64,000 nucleotides of DNA, from positions 864,001-928,000 of the forward strand of contig CBDBGZ010000009.1 in the NCBI GenBank assembly GCA_965205425.1. Direction: 5' to 3'. This document shows positions 28,493 through 45,538 of the stretch, piece by piece. The DNA comes from Nitrosopumilus sp. (GTDB lineage Archaea; Thermoproteota; Nitrososphaeria; Nitrososphaerales; Nitrosopumilaceae). Within the stretch, counting starts at the first letter, position 1; the number at the start of each line of letters is the position of its first letter. A program made the translations under genes and the position numbers. Under the pieces are notes generated by a model. It did not search any database. It saw only the letters and a program-made list of their open reading frames with translations, and had not been told where the DNA came from.

Positions 28493-28810
28493 TCAGTATT
28501 GATCATCATGGAAATGAATGTACAATAACATGGCTTTCTCCAACTCATGTTGATATGGGCCACGCACTACTCCGTTGTGCCTCTTTTTGACAAATTCCTT
28601 GAATCGCTCTGCGGCATACCCTGATACTGTGGTGTTTATTCTTGATTTTTCAAGCATTCTCTGTAATCGTATCGTTTCATCTATCTCTTTTAAGAAATCA
28701 TTTGTTTGATTTCTGACCTTTATCATTTTTTTCTGGATTTGTATCATCTCATTTGCAAGGGATGTTATCTTACCACAATAGTTTTTTTGAGGTGTTGCGG
28801 GCTTTGACAT
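28493..28810 (-). CDS. Coiled-coil + RHH-like hypothetical protein
   Basis: RINTTVS...F..FVKKRHNGVVRGPYQHELEKAM, paralogous to 27535-27987. Confidence 0.6.
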   Translation of the reverse strand: MSKPATPQKNYCGKITSLANEMIQIQKKMIKVRNQTNDFLKEIDETIRLQRMLEKSRINTTVSGYAAERFKEFVKKRHNGVVRGPYQHELEKAMLLYIHFHDDQY

Positions 28811-28814
28811 TATT

Positions 28815-29012
28815 TTATGATACTGGATTGTATCTTCCAGGACTTGACTCGTAAACCATACTCTCCCTTAGGGCTCTTTTGATGAATTCCTTGGCAGAGT
28901 ATTCGTCCCATTTTCCACTCTCTGTCATGTTCTTTACTATCTCTTTTTCAGTCGCACCAGTACCATAGGTTGCAGCGACCCCTTTCATGATATCTCCGAA
29001 CAGCTGCATCTT
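28815..29012 (-). pseudogene. C-terminal winged-helix remnant of an MCM helicase, truncated by the IS
   Basis: KMQLF....EKE..K...W....A..FI.R.LRE..VYESSPGRYN resembles the archaeal MCM C-terminus; the frame begins at the IS end. Confidence 0.7.
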
Positions 29013-30332
29013 CAGTAGATGGGAAAGTACATCAAATTACACATTCTAGAAAATAATTATTTTTGTTATTTCTAAGGTAATGAATAATTATCTTTACAAA
29101 GAAATATTTGAGAATTTCAATTGATATTATTGGTTTGTAATTTTTTACATTGGTTTCTTCTGAGATAATCAAATTAGCAATTATCCATGCATTGTACAAA
29201 ATCAAGGAATAGTAAAAATACAACAATCTTATGGATTGGTTTGAACTGGTGGTTTTTGGTCTGAACCTTCCCACACATGCATATCCTGTTTCAATTCCCC
29301 AACGTTTCTTGTAATCAGTTGGAATGTTTTGTATGTTATATGATATTTCTTTTGGTGAAACGTTTGTTGCAAACACAGCATACTGATCAATAATATCTGA
29401 TTTTTTTCTTGCATTTTTGTTTGGCAGAATAACTAGATTAAATGATTCTACATGTCCTAATGATGATTTTATCGTGTATGGCGAGATTGACTTTCTATCT
29501 CCATTAACATATTGTAAAATGGCATCTTTGATTCGAGAATTCTTTTTTGCAGGCATTAGAAATTTTAAATTCCTTTGTTTTATTTCTGAAATTGTTCCAG
29601 CTGTGAAAAACTCCCTATCCACTAGCAATAGTTTAATCTTGATTCCATTATTGATGCCATCAGAGAGTAATTTACGCACAAAATCGGCATTTGATTTGTT
29701 GTCATACAAAGGATAACAACCTAATTGAGCCCTGATTCTTTTTTCAACGCACTGCATGGTGCAGTAACTCTCAAAATGAGTAGTACTGTTTTTTGATTTT
29801 GATTTTATTAAAGAATGGTTTGGCAATTTGTCATATCTTGGGATTAGATGTTTGTCAATTGCTACAGTAACTGGTTGCTCCAATACTCCCAATTCTTGTA
29901 ATTTTGATATGGTACTATCCAGTGAACGATGTAATTGAATTTGCATTGTTTTTTGTGATATTTTTGATATGATTTTTCTCAACCATGAAACCAGTTGGAG
30001 AAGCATTATCTGATTCCATTGCCAGTCTCTTTAATCCAGATTCAGAATATGAATTTCCCAAACACAATGACATGATAGAATTATGTGCATCTGCATTGTG
30101 GAACCGTGAGTTATTTTTACTAGAGCATGGAAACAATAAGATATTGTACATTATTTTAGTGATAATCTCAAATGCTTTAGATAGTATCACGCCTTGGTGT
30201 GTCATGGTATCAAATGAAGTACAATGCATATTTGATGGAGTGACATACTTTCATCAAGCTTTTTCTATCTGAATAGATTGATTGAATAATTGATAGTTTT
30301 TGATCTAAATTGAGTTACTTTCCCATCTACTG
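29013..30332 (-). mobile_element. IS4-superfamily (ISH3-like) element, copy 2
   Basis: CAGTAGATGGGAAAGTA IRs; same two-frame transposase (29915-30229, 29032-30006); no TSD. Confidence 0.88.
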
Positions 30333-30386
30333 AGTTTTTTTATGAAAATTTCTTTGCTGTTTTTTTTATTATAATTGCAATTGTAA

Positions 30387-30677
30387 TTATATTTTATTGA
30401 TTAACTGCTCTTCCTCTTCAATTGCAGCATCTATGAGTGCCCTGGCTAATATTCTCCCAGTTTCTATCCTCATTCCTTTGTTGATGCATTCTTTTTCAAA
30501 AAGAGATATGACGTATTCCTCTCTTTTTTCATCAATTATGGAAAGACCGTGATCTTTTTTGTAATTGGCTATCTTTTTAGCTATGTTGATTCTTTTTGAA
30601 ATCGACGACACTATTTCTGTATTAATTTGATCAATTTCAAATCTCATATTTTCCAAATCACTCATTTTACTCAACAT
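30387..30677 (-). CDS. Chorismate mutase type II-like protein
   Basis: LENMRFEIDQIN.EIV..I.KR..IA..IA.YK...I.D.KRE. Confidence 0.8.
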   Translation of the reverse strand: MLSKMSDLENMRFEIDQINTEIVSSISKRINIAKKIANYKKDHGLSIIDEKREEYVISLFEKECINKGMRIETGRILARALIDAAIEEEEQLINKI

Positions 30678-32016
30678 ATATTGAATCCTTGCCTTTTAAA
30701 TATATGCGGTGGTTCTTGCTTGACTGTGATTTTTTAGGAAAGTCTGATCTTATGAAATACCCTATACTTTCTTGACGGTTAAGCGAGGAGACAAGTATTG
30801 ATTTTATGAAAACATCTTTTTCTTTTTTTATACACTTTGACAAATAAGCTGCATCTTTTATCATTCTTATATTTGATTTTGGCGGGCTAAATGATGATAT
30901 TTCACATTCGATTTTTTTCATTTTACAACTAGATGCCGCATTTTCACCTGCAATTTTTCCAAATACTAGAGATTCAACTATGCCATTTCCTCCAAGTCTG
31001 GATGAGCCATGTAAACCTCCAATTATCTCTCCTGCAGCATACATGTTGTCTATTGTTGTTTGTGCGTTTTTATCAATTTCCAACCCACCTAAAGAATAAT
31101 GATATACCGGCATTATTCGAAGTTTTTTGTTATTTAGGAAATTTAATGTCTTGCCATAAACTGTATTGTTGATAAGACGTTTTATCATATCATTGTCAAC
31201 TGAACTGTAATCTAAAAATATTTTACCGCCTGTGGATATTTTATTTATGAATTCTGAATTTATTTTAGATAGTTGATGATGATACCTATTTTTCCTTATA
31301 CTGTCCTCCAGATATTCAGGCAGAAATCTTTCTCCGAATTCATCTATTATGTCTGGGTATTCTAACACAGTTCCTGCGATTATGCTGTTTGTAGAATATA
31401 TTCCAAACGGATGCACCATTATGAATTCTGGGTTTGACAACACTCCTCCATTTCTAAATGCTGCAGATATGCCCATGCCATTTACTGTACTAGGGTTATC
31501 TGAGGGCCCGACTGAATTTGAATATCCTCCAGTTGCAAGTATTGTTGAGCCAGAAAAAAACATTACAAGATCATTGTTTTTTCTAAAAACAGCCCCATGA
31601 CACCGATTGTTTTCTACCATAAGATCAACTAAGGCAAACCCATAAAATTCTTCGACGTCATAATTTTGGATGTTTTCTCTGATTGACTTTATTATTTGAT
31701 TACCACTTTTACTGATTGGCATGTATCCAAACTCTGTTTTTATCATTTCTGTATTTTTTCTAATATGATCTGTTTCGGATTCTGATAAATTACACAATGT
31801 TTCAATTAGATCTTTATTCCCCAAATGATCACCTGTCTGATTAACCAAATCTGCGTTTTGATGATATCTTGTATTAGCTGGACTTTTGGTACTATTTCCA
31901 ACATTGTTTTTTGATACGATGGCAACCTTTCTTCCATATGATGCAGTCTCCATTGCTGCACGCATTCCAGATATGCCTGATCCAATTACAAGAACATCTG
32001 CGAATTTTTCAATCAT
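30667..32016 (-). CDS. FAD-dependent oxidoreductase, L-aspartate oxidase/SdhA family (divergent)
   Basis: VIGSGISG, LATGG, EFIMVHP, HYSLGG, YAAGE, HGSSRLGGN, RQESIG..RSDFP. Confidence 0.82.
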   Translation of the reverse strand: MIEKFADVLVIGSGISGMRAAMETASYGRKVAIVSKNNVGNSTKSPANTRYHQNADLVNQTGDHLGNKDLIETLCNLSESETDHIRKNTEMIKTEFGYMPISKSGNQIIKSIRENIQNYDVEEFYGFALVDLMVENNRCHGAVFRKNNDLVMFFSGSTILATGGYSNSVGPSDNPSTVNGMGISAAFRNGGVLSNPEFIMVHPFGIYSTNSIIAGTVLEYPDIIDEFGERFLPEYLEDSIRKNRYHHQLSKINSEFINKISTGGKIFLDYSSVDNDMIKRLINNTVYGKTLNFLNNKKLRIMPVYHYSLGGLEIDKNAQTTIDNMYAAGEIIGGLHGSSRLGGNGIVESLVFGKIAGENAASSCKMKKIECEISSFSPPKSNIRMIKDAAYLSKCIKKEKDVFIKSILVSSLNRQESIGYFIRSDFPKKSQSSKNHRIYLKGKDSIYVE

Positions 32017-32115
32017 TTCAAATAACTCTGTAAAATACGGATTGCGTGGTCCAGGCTGTATACTTGAGTCATGTGATTTTTCTCTGTTCTCTGTGATTGG
32101 ATATCTTCTTGCTCA

Positions 32116-32433
32116 TTAGAAAATCAAACTCCTATCAACCTTGGATGGATCTGAATTAATTTTAGTGAATTTCTTTAATGTTTTTTTCGATTTTGGTTTA
32201 ATTATGATTTTTCTATTTTCGCCAAATCTGGAAACAGGTTCAGGTTTGTTTTTGTATTGTCGGCAACCATTACTTGTCACACTATGTGATAATGAAAAAT
32301 CAGGCAAGCAGCCATTGGATTTTAACTCTACAGCACAACATGGACAAATATCAAACAAAGCCCATGAGTTATATGAATTCATACTTCCTCTTCGGGTTCT
32401 TTTGTGGAGACAGTTTTCAGTCTTACACCTCAT
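32116..32433 (-). CDS. Hypothetical Cys-containing protein
   Basis: ORF packed in the minus-strand operon; CKTENC, CPCC. Confidence 0.5.
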   Translation of the reverse strand: MRCKTENCLHKRTRRGSMNSYNSWALFDICPCCAVELKSNGCLPDFSLSHSVTSNGCRQYKNKPEPVSRFGENRKIIIKPKSKKTLKKFTKINSDPSKVDRSLIF

Positions 32434-32482
32434 TTCATATCATCTTCCTTGTTTGAAAATGTGATGCAAAAAATATGCCTGT

Positions 32483-32776
32483 TCATTTTCTGGATTTTCT
32501 CTTTGGGAGTGATTCCATGTATTGTACAATGGATGATTCATCCAAATTCTTCAAAAAGCATTCCAAATCAACACAAAACACAGATTTGCATCCAAACGGT
32601 TTCCCGTTATACACGTATATGTCCTCTCCTGCTCTTACGGCATGGATTTCTACTGAGCATTTTTTGTCTTCAACACCTGCCATTCTATACTCTCTGATGA
32701 ATTTAATGATGTGATTCTGAATACACCCAAACTTTGGCATGAATTGTTTTATAATTTTGATTTGATTCGGATACAA
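32483..32776 (-). CDS. Hypothetical protein
   Basis: Abuts 32777-33340 in the same operon. Confidence 0.5.
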   Translation of the reverse strand: MYPNQIKIIKQFMPKFGCIQNHIIKFIREYRMAGVEDKKCSVEIHAVRAGEDIYVYNGKPFGCKSVFCVDLECFLKNLDESSIVQYMESLPKRKSRK

Positions 32777-33340
32777 TTAGTTTTGTAAAATATGAATCAG
32801 ATGATCAAGACTGTACACTCGATTGTCTCGTATGGTTTTTATCTTGTTTTGAATGACATTGGCATTCCATGGCTGGTTGTACAGAAACACTGTTTTTCCA
32901 GAGTAAAATATTTTCTGGGCATTAATTAGAGAATCATCTATGAATATGTCATAGGATAATTTTTCCTTGTCTTCTTCAAATACTATATTGTTGTATTTGA
33001 TGTCAAACTTTTGCAAAAATTTTTCCAAATATTTTTTATTTGAATAATCATTTGCAGTTACGATGTCCATTACGCTGCATAATTCTGATAGTTTCTTGGT
33101 TTTTTGTTCCAAGAAAAATTCTGTCGGACACAATTCATTCCAAGACTCCCAACACTGTACAAATATTTGTCGTGAATCCTCATGTGTTATATGAAATTTT
33201 TTGTAAAAATCAAACTCTGTTATTTTATTGTATGATAGTTTCAAGTTGTTGTATTTTGTAGAGTAATCAGAGTTGAATATCTCAATCCATTTTTGTACGG
33301 TATTGCACAGTACACCATCAAAATCTATTGCTATTTTCAT
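32777..33340 (-). CDS. HAD-family 5'(3')-deoxyribonucleotidase-like protein
   Basis: IAIDFDGVL, IVTA, IFIDDS, NQPWN. Confidence 0.85.
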   Translation of the reverse strand: MKIAIDFDGVLCNTVQKWIEIFNSDYSTKYNNLKLSYNKITEFDFYKKFHITHEDSRQIFVQCWESWNELCPTEFFLEQKTKKLSELCSVMDIVTANDYSNKKYLEKFLQKFDIKYNNIVFEEDKEKLSYDIFIDDSLINAQKIFYSGKTVFLYNQPWNANVIQNKIKTIRDNRVYSLDHLIHILQN

Positions 33341-33345
33341 TTGTT

Positions 33346-33645
33346 TTAAAATGTTTTGAATAAAACTAAGAAATCAAATCCCCGTATTGCAGGAATTTTT
33401 TGTGGATTTTCATTCATTTCTACATCCCCACTTCCTGAAACATCCAATACACCAATCCCAATTCCTGCTTTCTTTACTCGATCAGAATATGGATTTTTTT
33501 TAATCGGATCCCCTCCACAGAAAGGACATTGATCGTGGTTTTGCATTGCAAATATGATTTTATCGACGTACTTTAAATAAATAAAGTTGTAATTTTGTAG
33601 GTGGACTGAAATCTGTGTCTGAAATTCAGTGTTTTTCTTAGACAA
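33346..33645 (-). CDS. Hypothetical protein
   Basis: Operonic position; CPFCG. Confidence 0.45.
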   Translation of the reverse strand: MSKKNTEFQTQISVHLQNYNFIYLKYVDKIIFAMQNHDQCPFCGGDPIKKNPYSDRVKKAGIGIGVLDVSGSGDVEMNENPQKIPAIRGFDFLVLFKTF

Positions 33646-33663
33646 TATATTAAATATTGTAAA

Positions 33664-34479
33664 CTATTTGAAACCTTTTCTTGACAGATAGTCTGCAACT
33701 ATTTTTTGTGCAAACTCTGCAGGTTCTAGATTATCTTCGCGTGACAATTTGGATAGTCCCTTTGCCTGGTTTTTAGATATGTGCAATGACAAGTTTTGTC
33801 TTGCCCTAAAGGAATTTGCCAACTTTTGAATTTCAGAATGTTCTGCTGTACTTCCAAGTTGTTCTAGTGCGTCCAGGTATCTCTTCTTTTGTGCACTATC
33901 ATACTTGGCAATTCTCTGTATTGTATCAACTGCCTTTGATGGTACGGTGATAATTTTACATATTCGTATTGCATCTCGCTTTGATAGTATCTTTGGCACC
34001 ATTTCTTTTATGTTACTTGGCACTACACCAAATCCGAGATATCCATGCAATGTTGAACGATTGATTCCCAGGGCTTTAGCAGCTGCAGATTTGCCCATCT
34101 TTTGGGCCAAAAACTGACAAGATGCCACCATCTCAGAGGGGGACATGTCTTTTCTGTGTAGATTCTCTATAATTGAGACAGCCTTTGCATCTTCTATGTT
34201 GCATGAGCTGTTTTTAGATAATACCAGTACTGGAATTGTTTTGGAACCCAATTTCTTTAATGCTGCAAGTCGTCTTTGGCCTGCCATGAGCAGATATCCA
34301 TTACCATCTTTTTGGACCATTGGGGGATTCTGCAGCCCTTCTTGTTCTATGGACTTTGCCAGTGAATCAATGTCTGTATCATCTAGTATCCTTGCCTGGG
34401 CCTCCTCCCACACTGTAACTTGCTCTATTGGGACCTCTTTTAGTGAATATGTTATGGGATTTTGGGTTATTTTATTCAA
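33664..34479 (-). CDS. ParB/Spo0J-family protein
   Basis: LAKSIEQEGLQNP, AGQRRLAA, IIENLHRKDM, HTH, C-terminal RHH-like segment. Confidence 0.88.
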   Translation of the reverse strand: MNKITQNPITYSLKEVPIEQVTVWEEAQARILDDTDIDSLAKSIEQEGLQNPPMVQKDGNGYLLMAGQRRLAALKKLGSKTIPVLVLSKNSSCNIEDAKAVSIIENLHRKDMSPSEMVASCQFLAQKMGKSAAAKALGINRSTLHGYLGFGVVPSNIKEMVPKILSKRDAIRICKIITVPSKAVDTIQRIAKYDSAQKKRYLDALEQLGSTAEHSEIQKLANSFRARQNLSLHISKNQAKGLSKLSREDNLEPAEFAQKIVADYLSRKGFK

Positions 34480-34483
34480 TTTG

Positions 34484-35299
34484 TTATGTAACTTTTTGGA
34501 TTATTGATAAATCTTTGTTATGTAGTTTTTTTAGGAAATTTCTCAAACTAACCTCTGTTATTCCAGCTATCTTTGCAATGGTACCTTGACTGAATCCTTT
34601 CTCACAGGACAGATACACCATAGTTGCAGCAACTGTTCCCGGATGAGACGATATGCTTGTATCTTTTTGTTTTAGAATCTCCAGATGTTTTAGTGACTGC
34701 ATCATTATCTTTTGACTGATATTAAGATCAGAGCATATTCTGTTTATCATGTTGATTGTTCTAGTATGCACATCTACAACATTTACATCAAAGGTCTGCA
34801 GTATGATTCGGCATACCCTACGTGTGGTCTTTTTTGAGGCATTTGAAATCGTGATAATTTCAGATTCTGACATACTTTTGCCGTTAATTTTGCACGATAC
34901 TATAACACATGCTGTAGCCACATCTGTCTTTCTTCGTCCACGTATCATGTCATTTTTTATACACTCTCTTGCAATGTGATATGATTCGTCTTTGATAGCA
35001 CTTGTTGCAGAAATTTTCTGCAATATCGGGTGTAACTCTATGAATAACTCTTTTGTTCTTTTATCCTTGTTGCTCTCTCTTTGCGATATTTTATGAGATG
35101 ATTTATGTGATAGTTTGATTTTTGGCGGTTCTGTTCCTATGCCGTAATCGTGTCTTGACGTGGTGTTCTTCTCGTTTGTTTCTGTGTGTCCTATGGTACG
35201 GGATTCAAGTATGACACCGCAATTCTTGCAGATGATCTCGCCTGCTACACTATCAGATATTGGCTGTGGCATTACACACTGGCAATGATTGTCTGTCAT
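34484..35299 (-). CDS. TFIIB/TFB-like transcription initiation factor (divergent)
   Basis: Zn ribbon GEIICKNCG; two cyclin repeats (RGRRK..VATAC; SSHPGTVAATMVY; SQGTIAKIAGITEVSLRN). Confidence 0.85.
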   Translation of the reverse strand: MTDNHCQCVMPQPISDSVAGEIICKNCGVILESRTIGHTETNEKNTTSRHDYGIGTEPPKIKLSHKSSHKISQRESNKDKRTKELFIELHPILQKISATSAIKDESYHIARECIKNDMIRGRRKTDVATACVIVSCKINGKSMSESEIITISNASKKTTRRVCRIILQTFDVNVVDVHTRTINMINRICSDLNISQKIMMQSLKHLEILKQKDTSISSHPGTVAATMVYLSCEKGFSQGTIAKIAGITEVSLRNFLKKLHNKDLSIIQKVT

Positions 35300-35621
35300 G
35301 TGAGTTATGTTACTTTGTTTTATTTTAAAGATGTTAATTTTCTATGGTACATGGATTGTCATGACCATGCTTGCATTTTCTTGATACTGCAGTAATGGTA
35401 AATTGCTCTTGTGTGACATTCAAATTGACATTGATCTCGGGAATGATACTGCCACAGATGTAGCATTTCTTTTGGGATATCTTCAATTATACATTTGAGT
35501 GAAAACTAGTTCTTCTCAAATAGAACAGAGACAATGATTATGATGATGCTAAAAAATATTGCAACAAAAAACAGCATTGAGTTTCTTGGAACGATATTTT
35601 GCACATATTCCACTGCAATGA

Positions 35622-35810
35622 TTAGTCAATTAGTCCAACTCTCCTTGCACATTGCTCATGTCTGATGAACTTTCCTCGTTTACCAGTTTTTGTAACTACA
35701 ACATCACCCACTATGATATCTTTTCCACAAGTGTGACAAAGAATTGGTGAACCGTATGTTATTCTTCTTCTCAAAGAATCATGAGTTACAGTGTATTTAG
35801 TGACGGTCAT
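35622..35810 (-). CDS. Small CxxC..HxxC zinc-finger protein
   Basis: CHTCGKDIIVGD...RHEQCA. Confidence 0.6.
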   Translation of the reverse strand: MTVTKYTVTHDSLRRRITYGSPILCHTCGKDIIVGDVVVTKTGKRGKFIRHEQCARRVGLID

Positions 35811-35873
35811 TTTACATCACTTTCCAATTCATCTGTGATGCTAAAATTAGTCAACAAATCAATTGTTCTAGAT

Positions 35874-37136
35874 TCAAGCAGTTGGATCTGCCACTTTGCC
35901 AACAAACAAAATGCTTCCAGTTTCGTTATCCTGTATCATGAACACAAATGGATGATCAGCATGAAATACTGGGTAACTCGGACCTGCAGATTCACGCATA
36001 ATAACAACGGCAGTTGCTGCAGCAGCCTCAGTGCCTTCTTCGTTTACATCCACAAACGCCTTGTGAATTGCTTGCGAGATATATAGATAATCTTCATCAG
36101 TTATGTTTTTGAAGTTATCCCTAACGTTTTCATCAAATGGTGTTGGCATTCCAAGTTCTATCAACGGATTTATCAGATCATAATTGGTTTCCATTTTGAA
36201 TTTTGGGAAAACTACTATAACTTTTGTTTCTTGCATATTTTCTTTCCATTGTTTTAAATTTTGACTTGTAAGGTTCTCTTCTATGTCCTTAATTCCATCA
36301 ATTTGGATAGGCAATACAACAATCATTGATAATCTATCTCCATCATAAGGCATCTCTAAAACTTGAAATTCATCTTCTTGCAGATAATTAAACGGAGATG
36401 CATCAAGTAACATCATTGGTGTTTTTACTTTTTCTGTAGAATTAAGATGAAAGTCACGATCACGTGTATCTGACTTGTCAAATTGTGTAACCCATGTACC
36501 TTTGAAATAAATTGCATTTGTAATAGCAACACGAGTAAGTTCATTTGTAGAGTCAGGTGCCAAAATGTCTTTGATTTTGTCGTTGGTTTGATCAGATACC
36601 CATTTGTTTATCTTGTCTACACCATCATTGGAAATGAAATCAACTTTGCTTACTTTTGAATGATAATTCTCTTTTGCAGAGTTTACAAATTTTGAATGTG
36701 GTTCTATAAAATCAGCAATCCATAAAGCATTTGCAGTTTGTAATTCGTATTTTGAGTTTTCAGAATTCATGCTGTTGATTACTGACTCAAATCCTTCATG
36801 TCTTTTCTTTTCATCTGCGGAAAAACCAAATACTTCTGCTATCTGGACTAACGCATCACTGCTAGCACCTTCATAAACAATTCCAAATGCAACAAAAATA
36901 CTCCAAGGTGAGAAAAATACATTGTCATCATTTTCTTTTATGATTTGGCGATAAAAGTCAAATGCAAAATCATTATTCTCAGATATTGTGTATTCAGAAG
37001 AGGGAGTTGGAACATATTCATAATTTAATGAGAGACTCGTCACGTCATCAATATTGTTGCTTGTGAACAAGACAATTCCAGTTACAGAAATACCAACTGT
37101 GATTGCAATGATAAATAGAATGTTTCTATTAATCAT
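35874..37136 (-). CDS. Serpin with an N-terminal membrane anchor
   Basis: NVFFSPWSI, NAIYFKGTW, EEGTEAAAAT hinge, FHADHPFVF. Confidence 0.95.
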   Translation of the reverse strand: MINRNILFIIAITVGISVTGIVLFTSNNIDDVTSLSLNYEYVPTPSSEYTISENNDFAFDFYRQIIKENDDNVFFSPWSIFVAFGIVYEGASSDALVQIAEVFGFSADEKKRHEGFESVINSMNSENSKYELQTANALWIADFIEPHSKFVNSAKENYHSKVSKVDFISNDGVDKINKWVSDQTNDKIKDILAPDSTNELTRVAITNAIYFKGTWVTQFDKSDTRDRDFHLNSTEKVKTPMMLLDASPFNYLQEDEFQVLEMPYDGDRLSMIVVLPIQIDGIKDIEENLTSQNLKQWKENMQETKVIVVFPKFKMETNYDLINPLIELGMPTPFDENVRDNFKNITDEDYLYISQAIHKAFVDVNEEGTEAAAATAVVIMRESAGPSYPVFHADHPFVFMIQDNETGSILFVGKVADPTA

Positions 37137-37280
37137 GAAAAATATCCTCTTTCAGTTATTATAAGCATTGATAAAAATTGAGTTTTACCTAAAATTCGGT
37201 TCCCCTTACACATGTGCAACACCGTTCACAATTAATGTTGTTGAGAAAATGTTAATTAGAAATTCTGTAATAGAAAAGTC

Positions 37281-37367
37281 GTCAGGGTCGCATAACACGG
37301 TATTGCGATGGTCTGAAAAACCATATCTGTTTCCACGGATCTGTGGGTTCAAATCCCATCCCTGACG
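37281..37367 (+). tRNA. Class II (long variable arm) tRNA with G73 and anticodon GAA: Ser-like body, Phe anticodon
   Basis: GTCAGGG/CCCTGAC acceptor stem; D-arm with GG; ATGGT-CTGAAAA-ACCAT anticodon arm; ATCTGT-TTCC-ACGGAT variable arm; GTGGG-TTCAAAT-CCCAT T-arm. Confidence 0.88.
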
Positions 37368-37444
37368 GGTTTATAATATTTGTACGGGCATGGTCCTTTA
37401 AAAGTTTCATTGTTTTGTCGCATTTGTTCCAAGAACGGTTCATT

Positions 37445-38584
37445 TTATTTTAGTTTCACCCATTTTTTCATATCCTGTGTAGTGATTGCATCCCCGTGTG
37501 GCAGCCATCCTTCTCTTGGCGTACGACAATTCATCTCTAGTTTTCTGTGATTCCATCTTGTGGCACCGACACATTTCTCAATTAGTTGCCACATCTCTTC
37601 AGGTTTTTTTGAATGACTCTTTGGGATGTATTTTGACTTTATGACGGTTTTATCAGATAACCCAAACGCCGGAACATCTCCGCGAATTCCAATGAGCAGG
37701 TGTTCTGTGACATTGTTCATCCAATAGCCGCCCCATCCACTCTTTTCTTCCTTTGCCCATGTTATGATGCATTTTGGCATGAATCCGTGGCAATGCATTA
37801 CAGAAATGGCATCTGATTGCACCTTTTGCTTTTGTAGGATCTCTGAGAGTAGCTCGTTGTCTGATTTATTTTGCTCCTGTAATTTTTTTACCTTGTCTTG
37901 ATTTGTAATCTTTTTGCAAAGGGAATCTAGTTTTTGCTTTTGTAGTATCTCACAGTACTCTGAGATTAACATCGAGCCTGTGATCAGGTGCTGGTTTGTG
38001 CTCCACATGTATAATACGGCATGGTCTGCTGCAATTGTATGAACTGGGATTCTGGCAATGATGTTTGTTGGTCCTGTTTTGTAGTGAAATGATGCGCCGG
38101 ACATACCACTGCCGCCAATGTTCTTGTTTCCAAAGTCCCATCCCGGGTCCTCTACAATGTGGTTGAATTTTCCTGCAGGCAGTGGCGGAATTGGTTTTTT
38201 AGCGTTTTCTACAGCCATATTTTTCGTGTATGCGGAGTGTAGTGATTTTTCACCAGAATCAAGGGATTTTTTTGTATCATTATCAATATTCTCAAATACC
38301 TTTGCCCTCTTTCGCACTGTCTCCCCGCTCTCTTTTAGGATTTTTCCAATTTTTTCATTCACACTTTCTGATGTGTGATCTGAATCTTTGGATAAAGTCG
38401 TATTTTTCAAGTCAGTGCGCTTTCCCTGATGCGTATGTTCCTTAAGATATGGCCTGATTCTTTCTGCAAAGTCTGCTTTTTCACTTTCGGTGAAGTCCTT
38501 TCTAAACTCATTTTCAATGATCTCAATTTTCAAATCATACGGGACGTTTCTTAGGATCTCTGATCTGGACAGTTTGCTCTTCAA
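37445..38584 (-). CDS. MT-A70 family adenine methyltransferase fused to the C-terminal half of a ParB domain
   Basis: IIENEFRKDFTESEK plus HTH; VEDPGW, LYMWST, ITWAK, NVTEHLLIGIRG, HSKKPE. Confidence 0.85.
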   Translation of the reverse strand: MKSKLSRSEILRNVPYDLKIEIIENEFRKDFTESEKADFAERIRPYLKEHTHQGKRTDLKNTTLSKDSDHTSESVNEKIGKILKESGETVRKRAKVFENIDNDTKKSLDSGEKSLHSAYTKNMAVENAKKPIPPLPAGKFNHIVEDPGWDFGNKNIGGSGMSGASFHYKTGPTNIIARIPVHTIAADHAVLYMWSTNQHLITGSMLISEYCEILQKQKLDSLCKKITNQDKVKKLQEQNKSDNELLSEILQKQKVQSDAISVMHCHGFMPKCIITWAKEEKSGWGGYWMNNVTEHLLIGIRGDVPAFGLSDKTVIKSKYIPKSHSKKPEEMWQLIEKCVGATRWNHRKLEMNCRTPREGWLPHGDAITTQDMKKWVKLK

Positions 38585-38808
38585 GATTGCTTTTTGATTA
38601 TTGCCTCAATTGATGTCAGTTGCAATAATTTACATGCATCCAGTCTCCTATTGCCTGCAAGAAGCTTGTAGGTGTCATTGGTGTTTTTTCTTAGAGTTAT
38701 CGGTGATAGTAACCCTTCTTCTTTGATGGACTGTGCAAGCTCTGCAATGTCGCCCATGTCTTGTCTGATTCTTTTTTGTACGATGATTTTGGATATTTCT
38801 ATCTTCAT
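38581..38808 (-). CDS. ParB N-terminal domain protein
   Basis: RIRQD....LAQSIKEEGLLSPI, LLAGNRRLDA; ATG at 38808 inferred. Confidence 0.8.
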   Translation of the reverse strand: MKIEISKIIVQKRIRQDMGDIAELAQSIKEEGLLSPITLRKNTNDTYKLLAGNRRLDACKLLQLTSIEAIIKKQS

Positions 38809-38809
38809 C

Positions 38810-39064
38810 TTATTTTTTAAATGAGAGTTTTGGCAATCTTCCTTCTTCGTACCATGCACCCAACTGATATAGCCAAAAAACTGCGTTTGATATGCCTCCA
38901 AATATTACTAAAGCCTGATAAACGCCACTTTGCTGACCATTTAAAATCCTGTCTGATATTGCAGCAATCATCAAAAATTTTAAAAATACAGCAATCACGA
39001 TTTTGGCAGCTTTCTTTGTAAATGGAATTGTTGCAGTATATCTTTTACACATGATATTTAGCAC
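38810..39064 (-). CDS. Small membrane protein
   Basis: Two hydrophobic helices; abuts the ParB start. Confidence 0.45.
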   Translation of the reverse strand: MLNIMCKRYTATIPFTKKAAKIVIAVFLKFLMIAAISDRILNGQQSGVYQALVIFGGISNAVFWLYQLGAWYEEGRLPKLSFKK

Positions 39065-39085
39065 AGTATCCTCAAATCAACTTTC

Positions 39086-39379
39086 ATGGATGTGTCAATC
39101 CTTGAAATTAAAGATATTTTGCAAATCAATGCGACAATAATTGCTGGAACTTTGGTGTTGTTAACCTTGATGAACATAGTCAAACAAAAATGGAGTGGTA
39201 GCATACGTTTGTATATTTTAACAATAGTTGTGTTCTATTCTCTGTCATCTATTCTTGCATTATTGAGTTTGACATATGTTGAACTGTATGAGGTATCTGT
39301 GGTTATGATGGGAATCGGATTTGCATTTATTATTTTATTGGTAGTGTTTTTGATGCAAGACAAGTACTGGGAAAAATAA
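39086..39379 (+). CDS. Small three-TM membrane protein
   Basis: Strongly hydrophobic 97-aa ORF. Confidence 0.65.
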   Translation: MDVSILEIKDILQINATIIAGTLVLLTLMNIVKQKWSGSIRLYILTIVVFYSLSSILALLSLTYVELYEVSVVMMGIGFAFIILLVVFLMQDKYWEK

Positions 39380-39497
39380 TCTCTAACTGAGAATTTCATT
39401 CCATTAATAATGCATGTCATTCCAGCAGGACTCATGATGGTATCTCTTGTGTGACTTTGACTGGGATATGTACAGATAATCGCCAATCTCAAAGGAT

Positions 39498-41771
39498 TTA
39501 GTTGCAGATATTTTTGGTTGATTTTTCAATAGTGTCATATATTTTGATTTTGTCAGGTAGCAAAATATCATTTTTCTGCATAAAAGATATTCTTCTCTTG
39601 ATGTATGCTTTTCTGATTTTTGTATCTGCATTTATCTGAGAACTTGTGTTGTTCCCATGTATGATACTACAAAGAATGGATGCATCATAAGAGTGTATTT
39701 TGACATTATGTGTTTTTTTTATTTCAGTTTTGATCTTTTTCCAACATTTAACATTCTTATGATGCCATGAAGACAATTGCAACAATCCATCATACATAAA
39801 CTTGGAGATGTAAAAGATCACAGCCATCTCGATTGTAAACATCAGTCCAAATACGACAAATATTTGAGTCCAATAATCTTTGATGTATTTTAGTTCTGGA
39901 TATACTGCAGAATGATCATTTGATGTAATCATGATGTTAGTTGTGTTGTAATTACTTGATTTTGGAAAATCAATTATACAAAACACATTAGTGGACATTC
40001 TTTTGAATTCAACTGATATTGTATCGTTGTTGTGAAATACACTGCCTTCTATACAACCTGTGTCGTAACTGTCTAGAGTTTTGAAGTAAAATCTCCAAGA
40101 TATTCTAAAGAATAATCATGAAAGTTTAATCCTCGTAATCTGCATGTCTCCTTTATACTCATCAGTATCTTATGAGAATCGGCACCATGAATGGTTCTAT
40201 GACCGTTTGTAATTTTACGAATTATCACATTTGGTCTGATTGCCCTCTCTGCTGTGTTATTGTGTGAATCAGTTCCAGTAATTAGGAATGTAAAAAGCAT
40301 TTTTCTCTCACGTTTCAATCTTTTTACAAACCTGATACAGTTTTTCTCTGTGTATTTTTTTGATATGATGTGATTAATTCTCCTTTCAAGATTCTTTTTT
40401 GCATGGATTCTTTCTGATTCTGATTTTATTTTTGCCACACCATGAGAGTCATAAATTATTTTCTTGAGATTCTTGGCAAATGGTGCAAATTCTGGTCCGG
40501 GATTCTTGTGATTAATGGTATCATTAACCTCTCTGAGATAATGGATGTGACATTTCTGGTGAGTTGTTCCAACATGGTTCCATGCAGGGTACGAATCACT
40601 TGTAATGTTGCCATTATACTCCTTGAGAATTCTCTTGGGAACATCCATTGAACGTGATTTGTCAATCTCGTAAATTACAGTCCATTTACTCACAAATGCC
40701 CACAACCAGTGGTTCTGGCCATCTATCCTCCAACTTGTCTCATCACCATGTATGTTTAGATCTTCTTTTAACTCTACAATCATTGTATCATATCTGCTCC
40801 CAAATGCTTTTGATACTATTGATACTGCATGATTAATTGCAGATTCTGTAATGTGCAGTGAGAAGAGCATCTGCAAAAGATGAGATATTTTACCATACGA
40901 TAATCCGATAGTTTTTAGTGATGTGATTAGCACCATGAGCCTAATTCCAAACCTTTCATTTGACAGTACAGTGTGAATGTTACCCGAGATTTGTTTTTTG
41001 CAGTTTGTGCAGTATCGTCTAACTATCGTATATTTTGTCACAACTGCTTTTGCAGGAATGATGTCTTCTACTATTCTGGTGTATGAATCAGTTGGTTCTG
41101 AGAGTGATTTGCCACATGTGTTGCACTCTTTTTGGTCAACTGTAATGGCATCATCAATGTGTGCCCGTCTGCTTCTGCTTTTTCTAGGATGTCTTGATGT
41201 TTTCTTCTTTTTTGCAGTTTCAGTCTGGTTTGGTTTTGCTTTGATATTTCTTGCAACAAGTGTAGACACTGTTTGTTTTAGTTCTGCAATTTCTCTGTGT
41301 AGTGATTCAATATCTTTGCGTAACTGACGGTTTTCTTGCTCCAACGAGTGACATCTGTTACGATAATATTCCAGCTCATCATATACTGACAATTGTATAT
41401 TGTAATTTGTCACTGATCAGAAAAGATATAGATAAAAAATATTAAAGAAAGTACTTCAAAACTCTAGACAGTTACCCTGTGTCAACTATTGTAATTTCTG
41501 AATCGAATTGCATATGTGCCATGACATCCTTTGCCTGAACTAATCCTGTGTTTTTTAGGGTTATTGCAGACATTTTCTCAGAGTTTTCATAATATTTTTT
41601 CTCGGCATCAAAATCAGTCAACAGTTCTGTTGAAAATGAATTTGACGTTAAAATTACAGTTGCAACAGGTATGATTATTGCAGCTAATGTCTTTGCATCC
41701 ATCTCATAGTTTTGTTGTTTCATCTTTATTGTTCTTTTTGTTTGTCTTTTGGGTAATTTGGTTTCCCCCAA
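39498..41771 (-). pseudogene. Membrane/surface protein gene interrupted by IS66
   Basis: Removing the IS and one TSD joins ...ITIVDTG to CIEGSVFHNNDTISVEFKRMSTN in frame. Confidence 0.8.
40065..41475 (-). mobile_element. IS66-family element with a single transposase ORF (40073-41413)
   Basis: Perfect 24-bp IR GTAACTGTCTAGAGTTTTGAAGTA; 8-bp TSD CCTGTGTC; HGDETSW, SDSYPAW, QKCHIH, NNTAERAIR. Confidence 0.95.
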
Positions 41772-41977
41772 TCAAGTATCCTTTTTTTGTAATTGGCATG
41801 GTTATACTTTATTGCATCAGAAAGACCAGTGTCTGGATTGTTTTTTCTTAACTGAATATAGTGATATGTAAAATAGTCTGACTCGTCTTCTTTTTTCTTG
41901 TATTGTTTCCGATACCACACAGTAGCAACTGCAAAAAAGATCATAAATCCCATCAGAATGTATGTAATGTCCGTCAT
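41726..41977 (-). CDS. Small membrane-anchored protein
   Basis: N-terminal TM followed by a charged tail. Confidence 0.55.
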   Translation of the reverse strand: MTDITYILMGFMIFFAVATVWYRKQYKKKEDESDYFTYHYIQLRKNNPDTGLSDAIKYNHANYKKRILDWGKPNYPKDKQKEQ

Positions 41978-42019
41978 TGTGTTAACAGAAATACTTTCTC
42001 AACTGTTCAATAATTCTAG

Positions 42020-42098
42020 TAATGCATGTCATTCCAGCAGGACTCATGATAGTATCTCTTGTGTGACTTTGACTGGGAAATGTACAGAGAGTCTCCAA
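42020..42098. repeat. About 80-bp direct repeat with 39408-39487, encoding a degenerate zinc-finger tail (IGD.LYISQSKSHKRY.HESCWNDMHY)
   Basis: TAATGCATGTCATTCCAGCAGGACTCATGAT... at both sites. Confidence 0.8.
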
Positions 42099-42250
42099 TG
42101 TTAAATGATTTGTCACACTTTTGACATGACATGGTGTTATAGTGTTTTTTCTGTGTATGTGTGCGGATTGTACTAGTACGGCTTCCTGACATGGTATGAT
42201 ATTTGAATAGTTTATCATGTTATTTTTAGTTGTATTTTGTATTGTTGAGA

Positions 42251-42634
42251 TTATCTCTCTTCAATGAATCTTAATGTAGATTCAGCTACATCTGAGGTTA
42301 CATTGAGCATAATTTCAATGTCATCTGATGTTTGCTGCATGTCAAGTAACAATACCTGAAAATCTGCAAGCCACGTATTTGTTGGAAATTCATCACTGTC
42401 TTTTGGAGGAGCATATTTTATCATATCTACAAAATTCGATGTCACCTGTTCTAGATTTGCAATGAGCTCTTTGACATGTTCTCCAAGATCAGGTGCAAAC
42501 TTTGTTATAATCTCACACTGGGTAGAAAAATCAGATATCCGTTTTAGGTGGATTTGATGCATTTGTGTGCAGAACATTTTGTATTTTGCCAAATCCATGT
42601 CTTGCAGTTTGTCTGATTCGTACATTTCTTTCAT
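42251..42634 (-). CDS. Hypothetical helical protein, probably 5'-disrupted
   Basis: 127-aa ORF next to the IS481 insertion site. Confidence 0.45.
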   Translation of the reverse strand: MKEMYESDKLQDMDLAKYKMFCTQMHQIHLKRISDFSTQCEIITKFAPDLGEHVKELIANLEQVTSNFVDMIKYAPPKDSDEFPTNTWLADFQVLLLDMQQTSDDIEIMLNVTSDVAESTLRFIEER

Positions 42635-42794
42635 ATCTTCATAAGCATACCCTGCATTATCTATATGCTGTTGGATATCAAATCATCAAGTTGTGATGTG
42701 TACGCATTCATCAGTCTGATTCTTTTTTGTATTTTGCCCACAAATGGTATTGATTTTCGTGGTCTTTTTAAGTGAGTGTGTAACGTGCCATGAT

Positions 42795-43836
42795 TGTTCT
42801 TTCCAGAAATTATTTCGTGTCACTTTCATGAGTAATTCCTCCATAGAATGCTTGGGTCTATGAGTATTTCGTTTGTTATCATCTTGGAGTGATACGCATC
42901 AGATGGTGTCTCCATGTTATCCAAGTCTAGTGCGCCATGAACTCTAATGTGATTGTACCAATGCATAAACTGCTCCACTGACTCAAAGTATTCTATTTTA
43001 CACTCAAAGATATCCCAGAACTTTTCTAGCTTACCATTTGTTTGTGGATGTCTCACTCTTGTACGAGAGTGCTTTACGTGATGTCTCATTAGTTGCTGCT
43101 CAAAGTCTACTGGCTTGTTATGATCAAGAGTATTGACATTTGATGTGAACTGTTTTCCATTATCAGATAGTACGGATGCTGGTCTACCGTGATTCTTTAT
43201 TGCATCAGATAGTACTGCAGAAGAATTCACAGATGTTGCCTCATCATACACTCCGAAACCCGTGATAAATCGTGAGGCATCATCTTCAAATGCAATTAGT
43301 TGTTTTCCTGCCCAGCGTGAATCATGTATTGTGTGCCAGTCAGTATGCCACAGTGAATTTGAATATTCACGTTCATACCTGATCCACTTTCTTCTCATCT
43401 TTTTCCGTGGTTGCTCAACTGATAATCCTTCATCTAGCATAATCTTGTGGATGCGATTGTGGTTTATCTTGGTATTGTACAATTTTGATATGATTTTCTC
43501 AAGGTATAGTGCGTTTGTATGAAATTTTTCTTGAACTTGTTTGACTAGCTCTATCTCGTGTACAGTGACTGGCTTTTTTGGACGCCCTGGTCTTTTGAGT
43601 GTGGGAATCTTTTTGGTTTTTTTGTACTGAGAGTAGACTTGTTGTACTCTTCTAGGCGTTATCTTGAGGATTACTGAAATATCTAAATTCTTGACTTTTT
43701 CATTTTTAGATTGTATAATCCACCTGATCTTATTCTCATCTAACTTTACCATAGGTATGCCACGATACCCACGCATACGATAGTATGGGAATGATGCTCT
43801 CCTAGTTAAGGGGTGAAATAATTTCCGGAAAAGATA
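42795..43836 (-). mobile_element. Second IS481-family element (distinct transposase ending at 42826)
   Basis: IRs TGTTCTTTCCAGAAATTATTTC / TATCTTTTCCGGAAATTATTTC; 15-bp TSD GTAACGTGCCATGAT; WHTDWH, LSDNG, PQTNGKLEK. Confidence 0.92.
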
Positions 43837-43881
43837 GTAACGTGCCATGATTATTGATTTGAATAACTTCAAGGCTCATTT

Positions 43882-44763
43882 TTAGATGTATTTTGTTTTA
43901 GCGTATTTGCATACACTGCGTCTTAGATTTAACATATCCAGTATCTCATGCCATTGTCGCTTGATTTTTTGAATTGTTTCTGGATGAATGTTGCAGTTTT
44001 TAGCAATCATGTGTAATGTATCAGGCTCGTAACGATGCAAAGAGTAATGCGATATGTATAGTGCAGTACCTACAAGTACTATTGGATCCTTGCTTGATGT
44101 AAGGCCTTTTTTTCTGGCATGGTTAATTATACATTGTGCTAACTCTATCTCTTTTTTTGAGAATTTCATATCAATGGCGTGTCTGTATAGTAATTTTTCT
44201 GTGAATTGTGTATAGTCAGTTGTAACATGAAATTCTTGTTTTAGTAACCAGAAATACTTGTTGAATAAGTTCTTGTTTGTCACACCAAAATCTGTTATGA
44301 ATTGCCTTCTAAGATACTTGTTTTGGGATATCTCATATGCAAAAAATATGATTGCCTTTTGGAATGAATCTTTTTTGGCATTTGTATCCAATAACCTCTT
44401 TGTTGATTTTTTACTTAGATGATATGCAATATTTTGAATGGATTTTGGAACCTGTCTGGAATCAAATATTTTTTCTAATGTTTTGAAATTAGCATAAATC
44501 CGAGCATCCTTGCTGTCTTGTATACGGAGTCTGCTCTGCCACACGTTGATTTTAAATGACTTTTTGCTACTCATATTTGCCACACTTCCCATGGCACCGT
44601 CATGGTGAGATGATGTCGTGCTATTCCAGTGAATCTTGCTTTCATTATCCTGGGTTGTGACTCCTCTATCTGATGGAATGGTTTTACCCAATACCATGCC
44701 ACAACATGCACATATTCTCTCTGCTGTGCTGTGATCCTCAATTATTGTTTGCAGGTGTTTCAT
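43882..44763 (-). CDS. Second, highly divergent TFIIB/TFB-like protein
   Basis: IIEDHSTAERICACCGMVL ribbon, HDGAMGS, WQSRLR, SKDPIVLVGTALYI, C-terminal HTH; ATG at 44763 inferred. Confidence 0.78.
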   Translation of the reverse strand: MKHLQTIIEDHSTAERICACCGMVLGKTIPSDRGVTTQDNESKIHWNSTTSSHHDGAMGSVANMSSKKSFKINVWQSRLRIQDSKDARIYANFKTLEKIFDSRQVPKSIQNIAYHLSKKSTKRLLDTNAKKDSFQKAIIFFAYEISQNKYLRRQFITDFGVTNKNLFNKYFWLLKQEFHVTTDYTQFTEKLLYRHAIDMKFSKKEIELAQCIINHARKKGLTSSKDPIVLVGTALYISHYSLHRYEPDTLHMIAKNCNIHPETIQKIKRQWHEILDMLNLRRSVCKYAKTKYI

Positions 44764-44779
44764 TGTATAAACTCTGAAT

Positions 44780-45538
44780 TCAGATTCCCCATCTACAATG
44801 TTCACAGCAAAACCACCTGTGAACATGACATTTTGTTTTCTTTGGACTAGTTGATTTGGAATTGCATTGAGGACAAAAGTTGATTGCCTTTTCAGGTTTT
44901 ACTCCTGAAGGCATTAGTCTTTGACCTCTCAAAAGAAAATATGCCCTGTTTACTGAGAGTTCATTGTTTCTGCATTTGTCTAGTGATTCTTTAGAGGCAA
45001 ATTTTTTCAAATAGTATACTTGACTGATTATGGTGTTACCCAATCCAACTTTCTTGCCATATAGTGAAACAGCATTTCCTTCCTTGATCTTCTTTTTTAT
45101 TTTCACAAGCTTGCCTTTTTTGTTTGTGACTGCTAGTTCAGGTTGATTTTTTCGCCAATCTGCCCTCTCTTTTGCACGTTTTTGTTCAATCTCAAAGAGA
45201 GGCCATGACAGTTCTGCTTTTTGGAATCTGTTTAGATGTCTTCTTGCCAGATTAGTCATTACGACAAATTTTCTCTCTGCTGTTTCATCTGGAAATGACT
45301 TTGTCTTAGTTGGAATGTCAGTTATTCCCAATTCCAGGCATATTTCATACCTTGTGTGACCATCTAGAATGAATCCATCACGATTAAGAATAATTGGAAT
45401 TTGCACTCCGTTTTTGATGATTGATTTCTTTAGCTTTGCCCTATCCTCAATGTTTGATCTGGGAACCAATTCGTAGTAAGCTGCGTTTATTCTTATTTGT
45501 TTTTGCACAGTTTCTGACACTAGTATCCCCATCCGCAT
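44780..45538 (-). CDS. ParB/Srx-domain protein with a C-terminal Cys/His-rich domain
   Basis: LKKSI.KNG...PII, LDGHTRY, NLARRHL; CPQC..CHVH...CCEHCRWG. Confidence 0.8.
   Translation of the reverse strand: MRMGILVSETVQKQIRINAAYYELVPRSNIEDRAKLKKSIIKNGVQIPIILNRDGFILDGHTRYEICLELGITDIPTKTKSFPDETAERKFVVMTNLARRHLNRFQKAELSWPLFEIEQKRAKERADWRKNQPELAVTNKKGKLVKIKKKIKEGNAVSLYGKKVGLGNTIISQVYYLKKFASKESLDKCRNNELSVNRAYFLLRGQRLMPSGVKPEKAINFCPQCNSKSTSPKKTKCHVHRWFCCEHCRWGI

Follow-up and report, generated by a model that had tools for sequence, protein, structure and literature searches.

A tRNA gene whose class-II, serine-leaning body carries the phenylalanine anticodon GAA was identified in a 64,000-nucleotide (nt) stretch of the genome of Nitrosopumilus sp. 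(GenBank assembly GCA_965205425.1, contig CBDBGZ010000009.1, positions 864,001 to 928,000), hereafter referred to as the window. It belongs to a family of long-arm GAA tRNAs, whose structure and anticodon loop are conserved among diverged copies from several genera. The reading that we favor, with somewhat less than an even chance of being right, is that these are functional, mobile tRNA-Ser(GAA) genes, whose products would insert serine (Ser) at UUY codons in competition with tRNA-Phe. The host assembly is 2.2 Mb in size with about 33% G+C, encodes an archaeal AmoA (386 bits) and contains intron-bearing tRNA genes; the host is an ammonia-oxidizing thaumarchaeon.

Structure and identity elements of the window tRNA

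The gene was the sole tRNA call in the window (ARAGORN; 37280-37368, plus strand, anticodon gaa) and also the sole Rfam match of the window, in which RF00005 matched 37281-37367 with 54.6 bits (E 5.5e-09; gathering score 29). Its score was 94.1 bits with R1, a covariance model of nine GAA copies of the family. The acceptor stem is GUCAGGG/CCCUGAC, which is followed by U8 and C9. The D arm (GCAU..UUGC) contains a U13.U22 mismatch and a D loop with G18 and G19, the anticodon stem is AUGGU/ACCAU, and the T arm is GUGGG-UUCAAAU-CCCAU, with the discriminator G73 at 37367. The variable region folded as ((((((....)))))).. at -3.3 kcal/mol, forming the base-paired extra arm between the anticodon and T arms that defines class II. 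A preliminary description of the window had reported a complete 87-nt cloverleaf with a 6-base-pair (bp) variable stem, G73 and the loop CT-GAA-AA with the anticodon at 37315-37317, and every one of these details was correct. An intron of the bulge-helix-bulge type in the variable region was also considered. It was rejected because the window arm is a plain, uninterrupted hairpin with no bulges. Plain hairpins with no bulge-helix-bulge were also formed by 11 of the 13 other GAA members folded.

The preliminary description had allowed for a sequencing error. However, Logan contigs from three runs, of which X1 and X2 are from one study and X4 is from a second, showed 0 differences over 36900-37372, including position 37316. 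Word depths of these contigs were about 997 (X1), 211 (X2), and 13 (X4). Given this agreement, at the level of contigs, the A at 37316 is not an assembly slip. Moreover, the loose ends of the contigs revealed further ...UGAAAA... paralogues in the same samples.

For the bacterial- and archaeal-type seryl-tRNA synthetases (SerRS), G73 and then G30-C40 are strong identity elements, while the large variable region is the main serine determinant and the anticodon plays no role (PMC9976931). The window tRNA possesses G73, G30-C40 and a long variable arm, in line with the serine-type body and phenylalanine anticodon described before. The archaeal phenylalanine set consists of A73, G20, C13-G22, G34, A35, and A36, and the anticodon bases are determinants for phenylalanyl-tRNA synthetase (PheRS) in all domains (PMC9976931). 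From this set, only the anticodon is found in the window tRNA, which instead has G73, U20, U13.U22, and an 18-nt variable arm. A73 is a leucine determinant and G73 an antideterminant for the leucyl-tRNA synthetase (LeuRS) of Haloferax (PMC9976931); the window tRNA lacks A73, so the leucine mark is missing. As GAA is neither NGA nor GCU, the window tRNA is not an ordinary tRNA-Ser isoacceptor, either. Among the 15 complete GAA members from the genome searches, 14 had G73 and 11, including the window copy, had G30-C40. Plain variable hairpins of 3-7 bp were found in 12 of the 14 GAA members folded (G073 gave no fold and the row of G020b was at wrong coordinates), and the variable-arm hairpin of G001 was seen in its whole-tRNA fold.

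The tRNA-Ser genes of the host (UGA twice, CGA, intron-bearing GGA, and GCU) all have G73 and its tRNA-Leu genes have A73; the rule that G73 marks serine and A73 leucine, on which the preliminary description had relied, holds for the tRNAs called in this genome. The host tRNA-Ser(GGA) is encoded by a separate intron-bearing gene (C9:325439-325540). Its loop is CUGGAAA, from which the loop CUGAAAA of the window tRNA differs, as noted earlier, by the single substitution of G35 with A. When the family model was run on the host tRNAs, the scores were 60.7 bits for Ser(GCU), 57.2 bits for Ser(GGA) despite its intron, 55.3 bits for Leu(UAG), which was the best Leu, 54.5 bits for Ser(UGA), 50-52 bits for the other intron-less Leu, and 38.5 bits for the canonical Phe. 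Together, the identity marks and the model ranking indicate that the body, judged by its sequence, is class II and serine-leaning.

The canonical tRNA-Phe of the host (C2:10467-10540) is a class-I tRNA with 69% G+C, A73, a 5-nt variable loop, and the anticodon loop CUGAAGA (G37). Canonical tRNA-Phe is kept in all 5 of the 5 carriers tested, with 84-100% identity to that of the host. Thus, the long-arm GAA tRNA is an addition to the canonical decoder and not its replacement. The host genome has one SerRS with a Seryl_tRNA_N domain and one PheRS alpha. No dedicated extra synthetase was found in the host genome, and none was linked at the other family loci examined. In all, six GAA tRNAs were called in the host genome, of which a second class-I tRNA(GAA) at C8:191680-191753 (minus strand) has a low G+C content (50%) and A73.

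Distribution, conservation, and mobility of the family

Two further long-arm GAA tRNAs were found in the host genome, at C8:120793-120882 and C9:254932-255019, respectively. The three host copies have the acceptor stem in common, but differ in their D, anticodon, and variable arms. An anticodon-blind search by the 3' end of the gene was carried out in 200 other genomes of the same archaeal family, a group of the Nitrosopumilus type that bears AmoA, and matched 17 of them. In 10 of the 17 genomes, which belong to one genus, the match was an ordinary tRNA-Ser(CGA). The search also yielded six additional complete long-arm tRNAs, two each in G177 and G194 and one each in G038 and G185. All six have the anticodon GAA, as do all nine copies obtained with the anticodon-blind pattern when those of the host are included. 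Other matches were a 75-nt UAA tRNA with a short variable region (G044) and a copy cut by a contig end (G141). In G001, a GAA copy with a degenerate D stem is accompanied by a 5'-truncated duplicate of its 3' end of about 75 nt.

The model R1 was run on 150 of the 200 genomes. It added five GAA copies with quite different acceptor stems, such as GGUGAGU, GUUGGCG, and GUCAGCG, of which two are from G020 and one each from G030, G109, and G073. R1 also found a copy in G059 with G73 and the anticodon CAA. Complete long-arm GAA copies were therefore found in at least 9 of the 200 genomes, from five genera, which is a lower bound because R1 saw 150 of the genomes. The 30 best-ranked R1 loci from these 150 genomes comprised 23 tRNA-Ser(GCU) and 7 family-type copies; the tRNA-Ser tally includes three genomes flagged as unpublished (G077, G092, and G093), from which no family members came. 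In 128 genomes from 19 other families of the order, nothing scored above the tRNA-Ser plateau, below which diverged members would escape, and 9 of the 9 top loci read were tRNA-Ser(GCU). In addition, 10 public loci, all thaumarchaeal and labelled Nitrosopumilus, Nitrosotalea, or Thaumarchaeota, matched a strict pattern that included the GAA loop.

In the alignment of nine copies, 95.6% of the cells pair, vs. 37-49% when the partners were slid by 1-3 columns. Changes on both sides were found in 10 of 20 pairs, including all five pairs of the anticodon stem. The observed pairing and covariation values were reached by 0 of 500 shuffles, a count that is not a probability, as the copies are related. 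The identities of 28 copies to the window copy in a structure-guided alignment ranged from 59 to 85%. The loop YUGAAAA was found in 27 of these 28 copies, of which 10 rows had been chosen with a loop-containing pattern and are not independent; it is kept in 17 of the other 18. The exception is the G059 copy, whose loop is CUCAAGA. The D-loop GG, the T-loop UUCRAAU, and G73 were also kept across the alignment. This pattern resembles that left by selection at the RNA level on a functional tRNA, or on something closely mimicking one. The comparison of GAA with GGA alleles, which had been suggested before, thus came out for GAA, and conservation and covariation together exclude a recent slip.

In the window, core synteny with genus-mates is interrupted between about 13,350 and about 56,461. 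The non-core stretch between these points contains a block that is also found in the genus-mate G177, where the tRNA again adjoins the ParB-methylase gene but the chromosomal surroundings differ. Thus, the window copy is inside mobile DNA. The long-arm GAA copies on C8 and C9 adjoin transposases of insertion sequences (IS). In G038 and G177b, the tRNA is followed by a rhodanese gene and then, 2-3 kb downstream, by an archaeal integrase; the copies of G020, G030, and G073 are amid housekeeping genes with no integrase within 5 kb. The tRNA had been described as element-borne, which stands for the window copy in its non-core, integrase-bearing DNA but is incomplete for the family, in which other members are amid housekeeping genes or are sites that adjoin integrases. 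No constant protein partner was found among 60 neighbouring open reading frames (ORFs) at 8 other loci; the ParB-methylase neighbour was common only to G177a and the rhodanese neighbour was found only in G038 and G177b. A virus-borne origin was tried and rejected, as the family 3' motif had 0 matches in IMG/VR and the island contained no virion genes identifiable with PHROGs.

Several copies are mosaics. In G177a, the flanks match those of the C8 copy, while the D and anticodon arms match those of the window tRNA. The T arm of the window tRNA and about 47 nt of its 3' flank also occur in the C8 copy. BLAST identified 72 nt at 87.5% identity in common between the window tRNA with its flank and C8:120746-120817. 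In L111, a 686-nt locus of a public Nitrosopumilus metagenome-assembled genome chromosome, three tandem units of about 293 nt each consist of a tRNA(GAA) and a conserved spacer. Its two outer tRNAs are damaged, one by a deletion in the T loop and the other by a deletion in the anticodon stem. Evidently, the family genes are recombination hot spots.

Proposed function and competing explanations

In the mechanism that we put forward, the family would have descended from tRNA-Ser, most simply from tRNA-Ser(GGA) by the change of G35 to A, and would read UUY while keeping the serine identity set. Each copy is a cloverleaf complete in itself, maintained by selection at the RNA level. It would be transcribed from its own A/T-rich box and then processed. 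According to the identity rules, the single ordinary SerRS of the host, whose N-terminal arm reads long variable arms and which ignores the anticodon, would charge the tRNA with serine. On the ribosome, the charged tRNA would compete with the retained canonical tRNA-Phe, and Ser would be placed at a fraction of the UUU/UUC codons. The genes seem to be mobile, given their occurrence in islands and near integrases and IS elements, their service as recombination sites, and their exchanged halves. Such mobility and half exchange would explain the patchy, multi-copy distribution. Possible benefits include regulated proteome ambiguity, Ser-to-Phe (UCY to UUY) missense suppression, and a weapon in element-host conflict. 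It is conceivable, with still less confidence, that tRNA-Ser(GAA) genes spread selfishly on integrative elements, and by recombining at them, and subject the host proteome to Phe-to-Ser ambiguity of a tunable extent. The CAA copy of G059 and a CCU copy in the host are hints that serine-bodied tRNAs for other codons form a wider set.

Several observations weigh against a decoding tRNA-Ser(GAA). The case for serine charging draws on rules worked out in other organisms; the summary table of PMC9976931 gives '...' for the archaeal serine identity, and its text on this point rests on Methanosarcina. G020b has A73, 4 of the 15 members lack G30-C40, and in the model scores Ser exceeds Leu by only about 5 bits. 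Some copies look decayed, including G177a with a T-stem mismatch, G001 with its degenerate D stem, and the damaged L111 copies. Strong expression of all three copies, next to a single canonical tRNA-Phe gene, would be costly. Phenylalanine codons account for 3.94% in the island genes vs. 4.14% in the core, i.e., there is no avoidance and no sign of adaptation to ambiguity. Moreover, tyrosine integrases reportedly have crossover sites in tRNA genes, as Williams is said to have described in 2002, and an invariant 7-nt loop with a symmetric stem resembles such a site. Recombination could thus help to keep the family loop.

This resemblance leads to an explanation that we consider unlikely, in which the family is a non-decoding, tRNA-shaped recombination module or mimic, i.e., an attachment (att) or crossover site or a protein-binding look-alike for thaumarchaeal integrative elements, with the loop as the core. 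The integrases 2-3 kb downstream in G038 and G177b, the truncated 3' duplicate of G001, the tandem tRNA-plus-spacer units of L111, the mosaic copies, the conservation of about 45 nt of 3' flank with the GGUUU trailer, and the patchy distribution in 9 of 200 genomes all fit with such a module. An att site, however, needs no full cloverleaf, no compensation in four stems, and none of the D-loop GG, the T-loop, G73, and the A/T box. The copies of G020, G030, and G073 with their housekeeping neighbours do not fit, either, and the searches for att repeats of the window copy found none. Use as an att site is in any case compatible with a function in decoding because elements choose tRNA genes that are already conserved. 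A role as a decoy for anticodon nucleases, another suggestion of the preliminary description, would have little support, as the canonical tRNA-Phe loop is CUGAAGA with G37 and the family keeps A37.

The anticodon is the one feature that is kept everywhere, and its bases are determinants for PheRS in all domains. PheRS, as a strong reader of G34-A35-A36, might therefore charge the family with phenylalanine, making it a spare tRNA-Phe that boosts UUY decoding for AT-rich mobile DNA. The A73 of G020b, the proportion of phenylalanine (about 4% of codons), and the six GAA calls of the host, including the class-I low-GC copy with A73 on C8, agree with this. Against it are the absence of the rest of the archaeal phenylalanine set, the class-II arm, A37 in place of the canonical G37, and the low score of the canonical Phe in the family model. 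A serine body with G73 across genera would also be left unexplained. We judge this to be improbable. Charging with leucine, as in the nematode nev-tRNAs, and hence Leu at UUY, is very improbable, although the body is class II, the Leu tRNAs of the host score near Ser in the family model (50-55 bits), and Leu-like D loops occur among the members (GGUCAA in the C8 copy and G030). G73, present in 14 of the 15 members, is not the leucine determinant A73 and is the antideterminant known from Haloferax LeuRS; in addition, the arms of the family, mostly 4-7 bp, exceed in length those of the host Leu tRNAs, whose 14-nt variable regions did not fold in the same test. Least credible of all is a recent anticodon mutation of tRNA-Ser(GGA), a decaying pseudogene, or a sequencing error. 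The single substitution from the Ser(GGA) loop and the stem defects of a few copies would fit, but contigs from two studies agree, and the GAA loop with compensatory stem changes is kept in copies that are 59-85% identical to the window copy, from at least five genera. Furthermore, the true tRNA-Ser(GGA) is a different, intron-bearing gene, and most homologs do not have GGA.

It is rare for natural tRNAs to have an anticodon at odds with their charging identity. In humans, the G35A variant of tRNA-Ser-AGA-2-3, a tRNA-Ser(AAA), is still accepted by SerRS and places Ser at Phe codons (PMC12993449, PMC9956149). Similar to the human variant, a tRNA-Ser(GAA) would arise by the one-base route of G35 to A from a UCN-reading tRNA-Ser. 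The human variant, however, is a segregating allele of one gene, found in about 2% of people, with the anticodon AAA. The archaeal family with GAA is diverged, multi-copy, and horizontally spread across genera. Similar to the nev-tRNAs of nematodes, the family consists of conserved, lineage-specific class-II tRNAs in which body and anticodon disagree, the anticodon fitting neither Ser nor Leu (PMC3333845, PMC4300185). Different from the family with its G73, Phe codons, and link to mobile DNA, nev-tRNAs are charged with Leu in vitro and have Gly or Ile anticodons. The tRNA-ProX of Streptomycetaceae is likewise natural and patchy, has an identity/anticodon mismatch, and was proposed to serve deliberate mistranslation (PMC10404621). 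It has a dedicated synthetase paralogue, ProRSx, whereas the host of the archaeal family has a single ordinary SerRS, with no synthetase linked to the tRNA genes; the two families also belong to different domains and involve different amino acids and codons. The tRNA-Ser(CAG) of CUG-clade yeasts also joins serine identity to a codon for a hydrophobic residue, with Ser/Leu ambiguity or reassignment (PMC9502446), but this is a chromosomal, clade-wide eukaryotic reassignment, in contrast to an accessory and mobile tRNA beside an intact canonical decoder. Finally, similar to the tRNA genes that are integration targets in Thaumarchaeota (PMC6563490), the family adjoins integrases and has truncated and tandem duplicates. 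The att sites of the published 'tRNA-Phe (GAA)' targets end in GGCA, i.e., with A73, and are those of canonical tRNA-Phe and not of the long-arm family (PMC6563490).

The main text of PMC6563490 presents tRNA genes only as integration targets, and a term search of it did not return the word suppressor. No description of the long-arm GAA family was found in passages of this mobile-element survey and of a mistranslation review, or in full-text literature searches, the supplements of bioRxiv preprints excepted. These searches also found no natural identity/anticodon-mismatched tRNAs for Archaea. If the selfish, mobile tRNA-Ser(GAA) were real, it would represent the first case in Archaea of a natural family of mistranslating tRNAs, and the first such family to travel as mobile cargo. 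The family is maintained by selection in several genera of nitrifiers of global importance, moves with mobile DNA, and would need no special synthetase. If the tRNA is serylated, ambiguity of the genetic code could be acquired horizontally as a single small gene, and carrier and non-carrier strains of cultivable Nitrosopumilus relatives would provide a simple system for studying what purpose mistranslation serves. If it is not charged, the family would be a new kind of tRNA-shaped recombination module.

Flanks, island, and other tRNA genes

The features of the window are listed in Table 1.

Table 1. Features of the window, with positions counted from its first nucleotide
Feature	Position	Strand	Evidence
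Class-II tRNA gene, 87 nt, GAA, G73, CCA not encoded	37281..37367	+	ARAGORN, Rfam, model R1
Anticodon loop CUGAAAA; anticodon GAA at 37315-37317	37313..37319	+	sequence
Variable region, 18 nt, 6-bp hairpin AUCUGU/ACGGAU (one G.U), 4-nt loop	37325..37342	+	RNAfold
A/T-rich TTAATTAG box, -29 to -22, candidate archaeal TATA element	37252..37259	+	by eye
Conserved 3' flank: trailer GGUUU (can pair with leader), then about 45 nt	37368..37417	+	flank alignment, BLAST
ParB_N + MT-A70 DNA methylase, two ORFs (38581-38901, 37445-38584)	37445..38901	-	Pfam
Serpin gene directly upstream of the tRNA	35874..37136	-	Pfam PF00079, E 1.4e-122
Island block common to genus-mate G177, rearranged, extra IS copies	23904..55655	.	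blastn of L093, L101; Pfam
Tyrosine-recombinase-like ORF, 567 amino acids, right edge of the non-core stretch	54708..56411	-	weak Pfam PF00589

The A/T-rich box upstream of the window tRNA was assessed by eye, within AT-rich DNA; it could belong to a promoter but is no proof of one. Comparable T/A-rich boxes at about -32 to -22 precede most family members and the ordinary tRNA genes here. The about 45 nt of 3' flank (motif CTTTAAAAAGTTTCAT) are common to the window, the C8 copy, G177a, L103, L108, L109, and L111. By eye, the trailer after G73 was GGUU(U) in about 22 of 24 GAA copies with listed flanks, and the leader ended in three pyrimidines able to pair with G73-G75 in about 20 of the 24. 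The ordinary tRNA genes of this genome are without the GGUUU trailer. In the precursor, the leader (37275-37280) and the trailer (37368-37372) could lengthen the acceptor helix by 3-6 bp. ARAGORN drew an acceptor of 8 bp via C-1:G73, and position -1 is a pyrimidine in 23 of the 24 copies. The standard 7/5 reading also fits the window tRNA, which has a D stem of 3-4 bp and the anticodon GAA. In tRNA-Sec and allo-tRNA, a 13-bp acceptor/T domain is found (9/4, 8/5, 8/4, 9/3), and tRNA-Sec has a 6-bp D stem and UCA. The leader-trailer pairing could be a processing signal, an att core, or a sign of 8/5 architecture.

The non-core stretch contains many IS copies, two pairs of TFIIB-like and ParB-like genes, methylases, a RelE/ParE toxin, and the serpin. 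The gene pairs, the methylases, the toxin, and IS elements are found within the block in common with G177. The PF00589 match of the recombinase-like ORF (E 4.5e-4, 20.5 bits) is below the cut-off of 27.1 bits; a homologous stretch is found in the G177 island at 68-70% nucleotide identity. The ParB_N-MT-A70 methylase is a single ORF of 482 amino acids in G177 (L093:7794-9242), which suggests a frameshift behind the split, overlapping ORFs of the window, and the methylase regions are 80.5% identical over 1979 nt. The serpin gene is full-length; the G177 island (L093) has no serpin and no nucleotide match to the gene, which is thus probably separate cargo. For the window copy, BLAST against the genome gave no partial copy of the tRNA or its flank in the window as an att repeat, and a k-mer search of the right border vs. 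the island gave only 9-11-mers, which are at chance level in AT-rich DNA. The empty site could not be reconstructed, as the left and right core blocks are non-adjacent in the complete genus-mates.

Other features of the island were also observed. TFIIB-like and then ParB-like modules flank the tRNA at 33664-35299 and 43882-46242 (both on the minus strand), and the two modules may represent a tandem of two related elements. IS elements are very abundant in the window. Two identical 1-kb IS copies (22616-23642 and 50649-51674) are 28,033 bp apart. The IS66-family element at 40061-41485 has several 99%-identical full-length copies in the host, and 99%-identical copies also in G177. The rve-type IS copies (4408-5436 and 21512-22553) are 97% identical to the IS beside the C8 tRNA copy. 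In G177, a Fic/DOC-family gene (L093:11152-11619) is about 1 kb from the island tRNA and has no nucleotide counterpart in the window.

The host genome also encodes several unusual tRNAs. The CCU copy mentioned above, at C9:356125-356209 (minus strand; L033:9926-10010), is a long-arm tRNA with G73, a related acceptor (GUCACGA), and an anticodon that is for the Arg codon AGG and one base from the Ser anticodon GCU. The family model gave it 48.6 bits, and an IS240-type transposase ORF directly adjoins its 3' end. Short tRNA calls of 72 nt were made for aag and gaa side by side at C4:165846-166126 and for aag at C9:454069-454140. A class-II 'Val(cac)' call of 96 nt at C7:71771-71866 (minus strand) has A73 and a 24-nt variable region. 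Similarly, an 85-nt class-II 'Gly(acc)' call at C9:1042184-1042268 (plus strand) has a Leu-like D loop and variable arm and A73. As ARAGORN called no tRNA-Leu(UAA) in the host genome, this 'Gly(acc)' may be a miscalled or interrupted tRNA-Leu.

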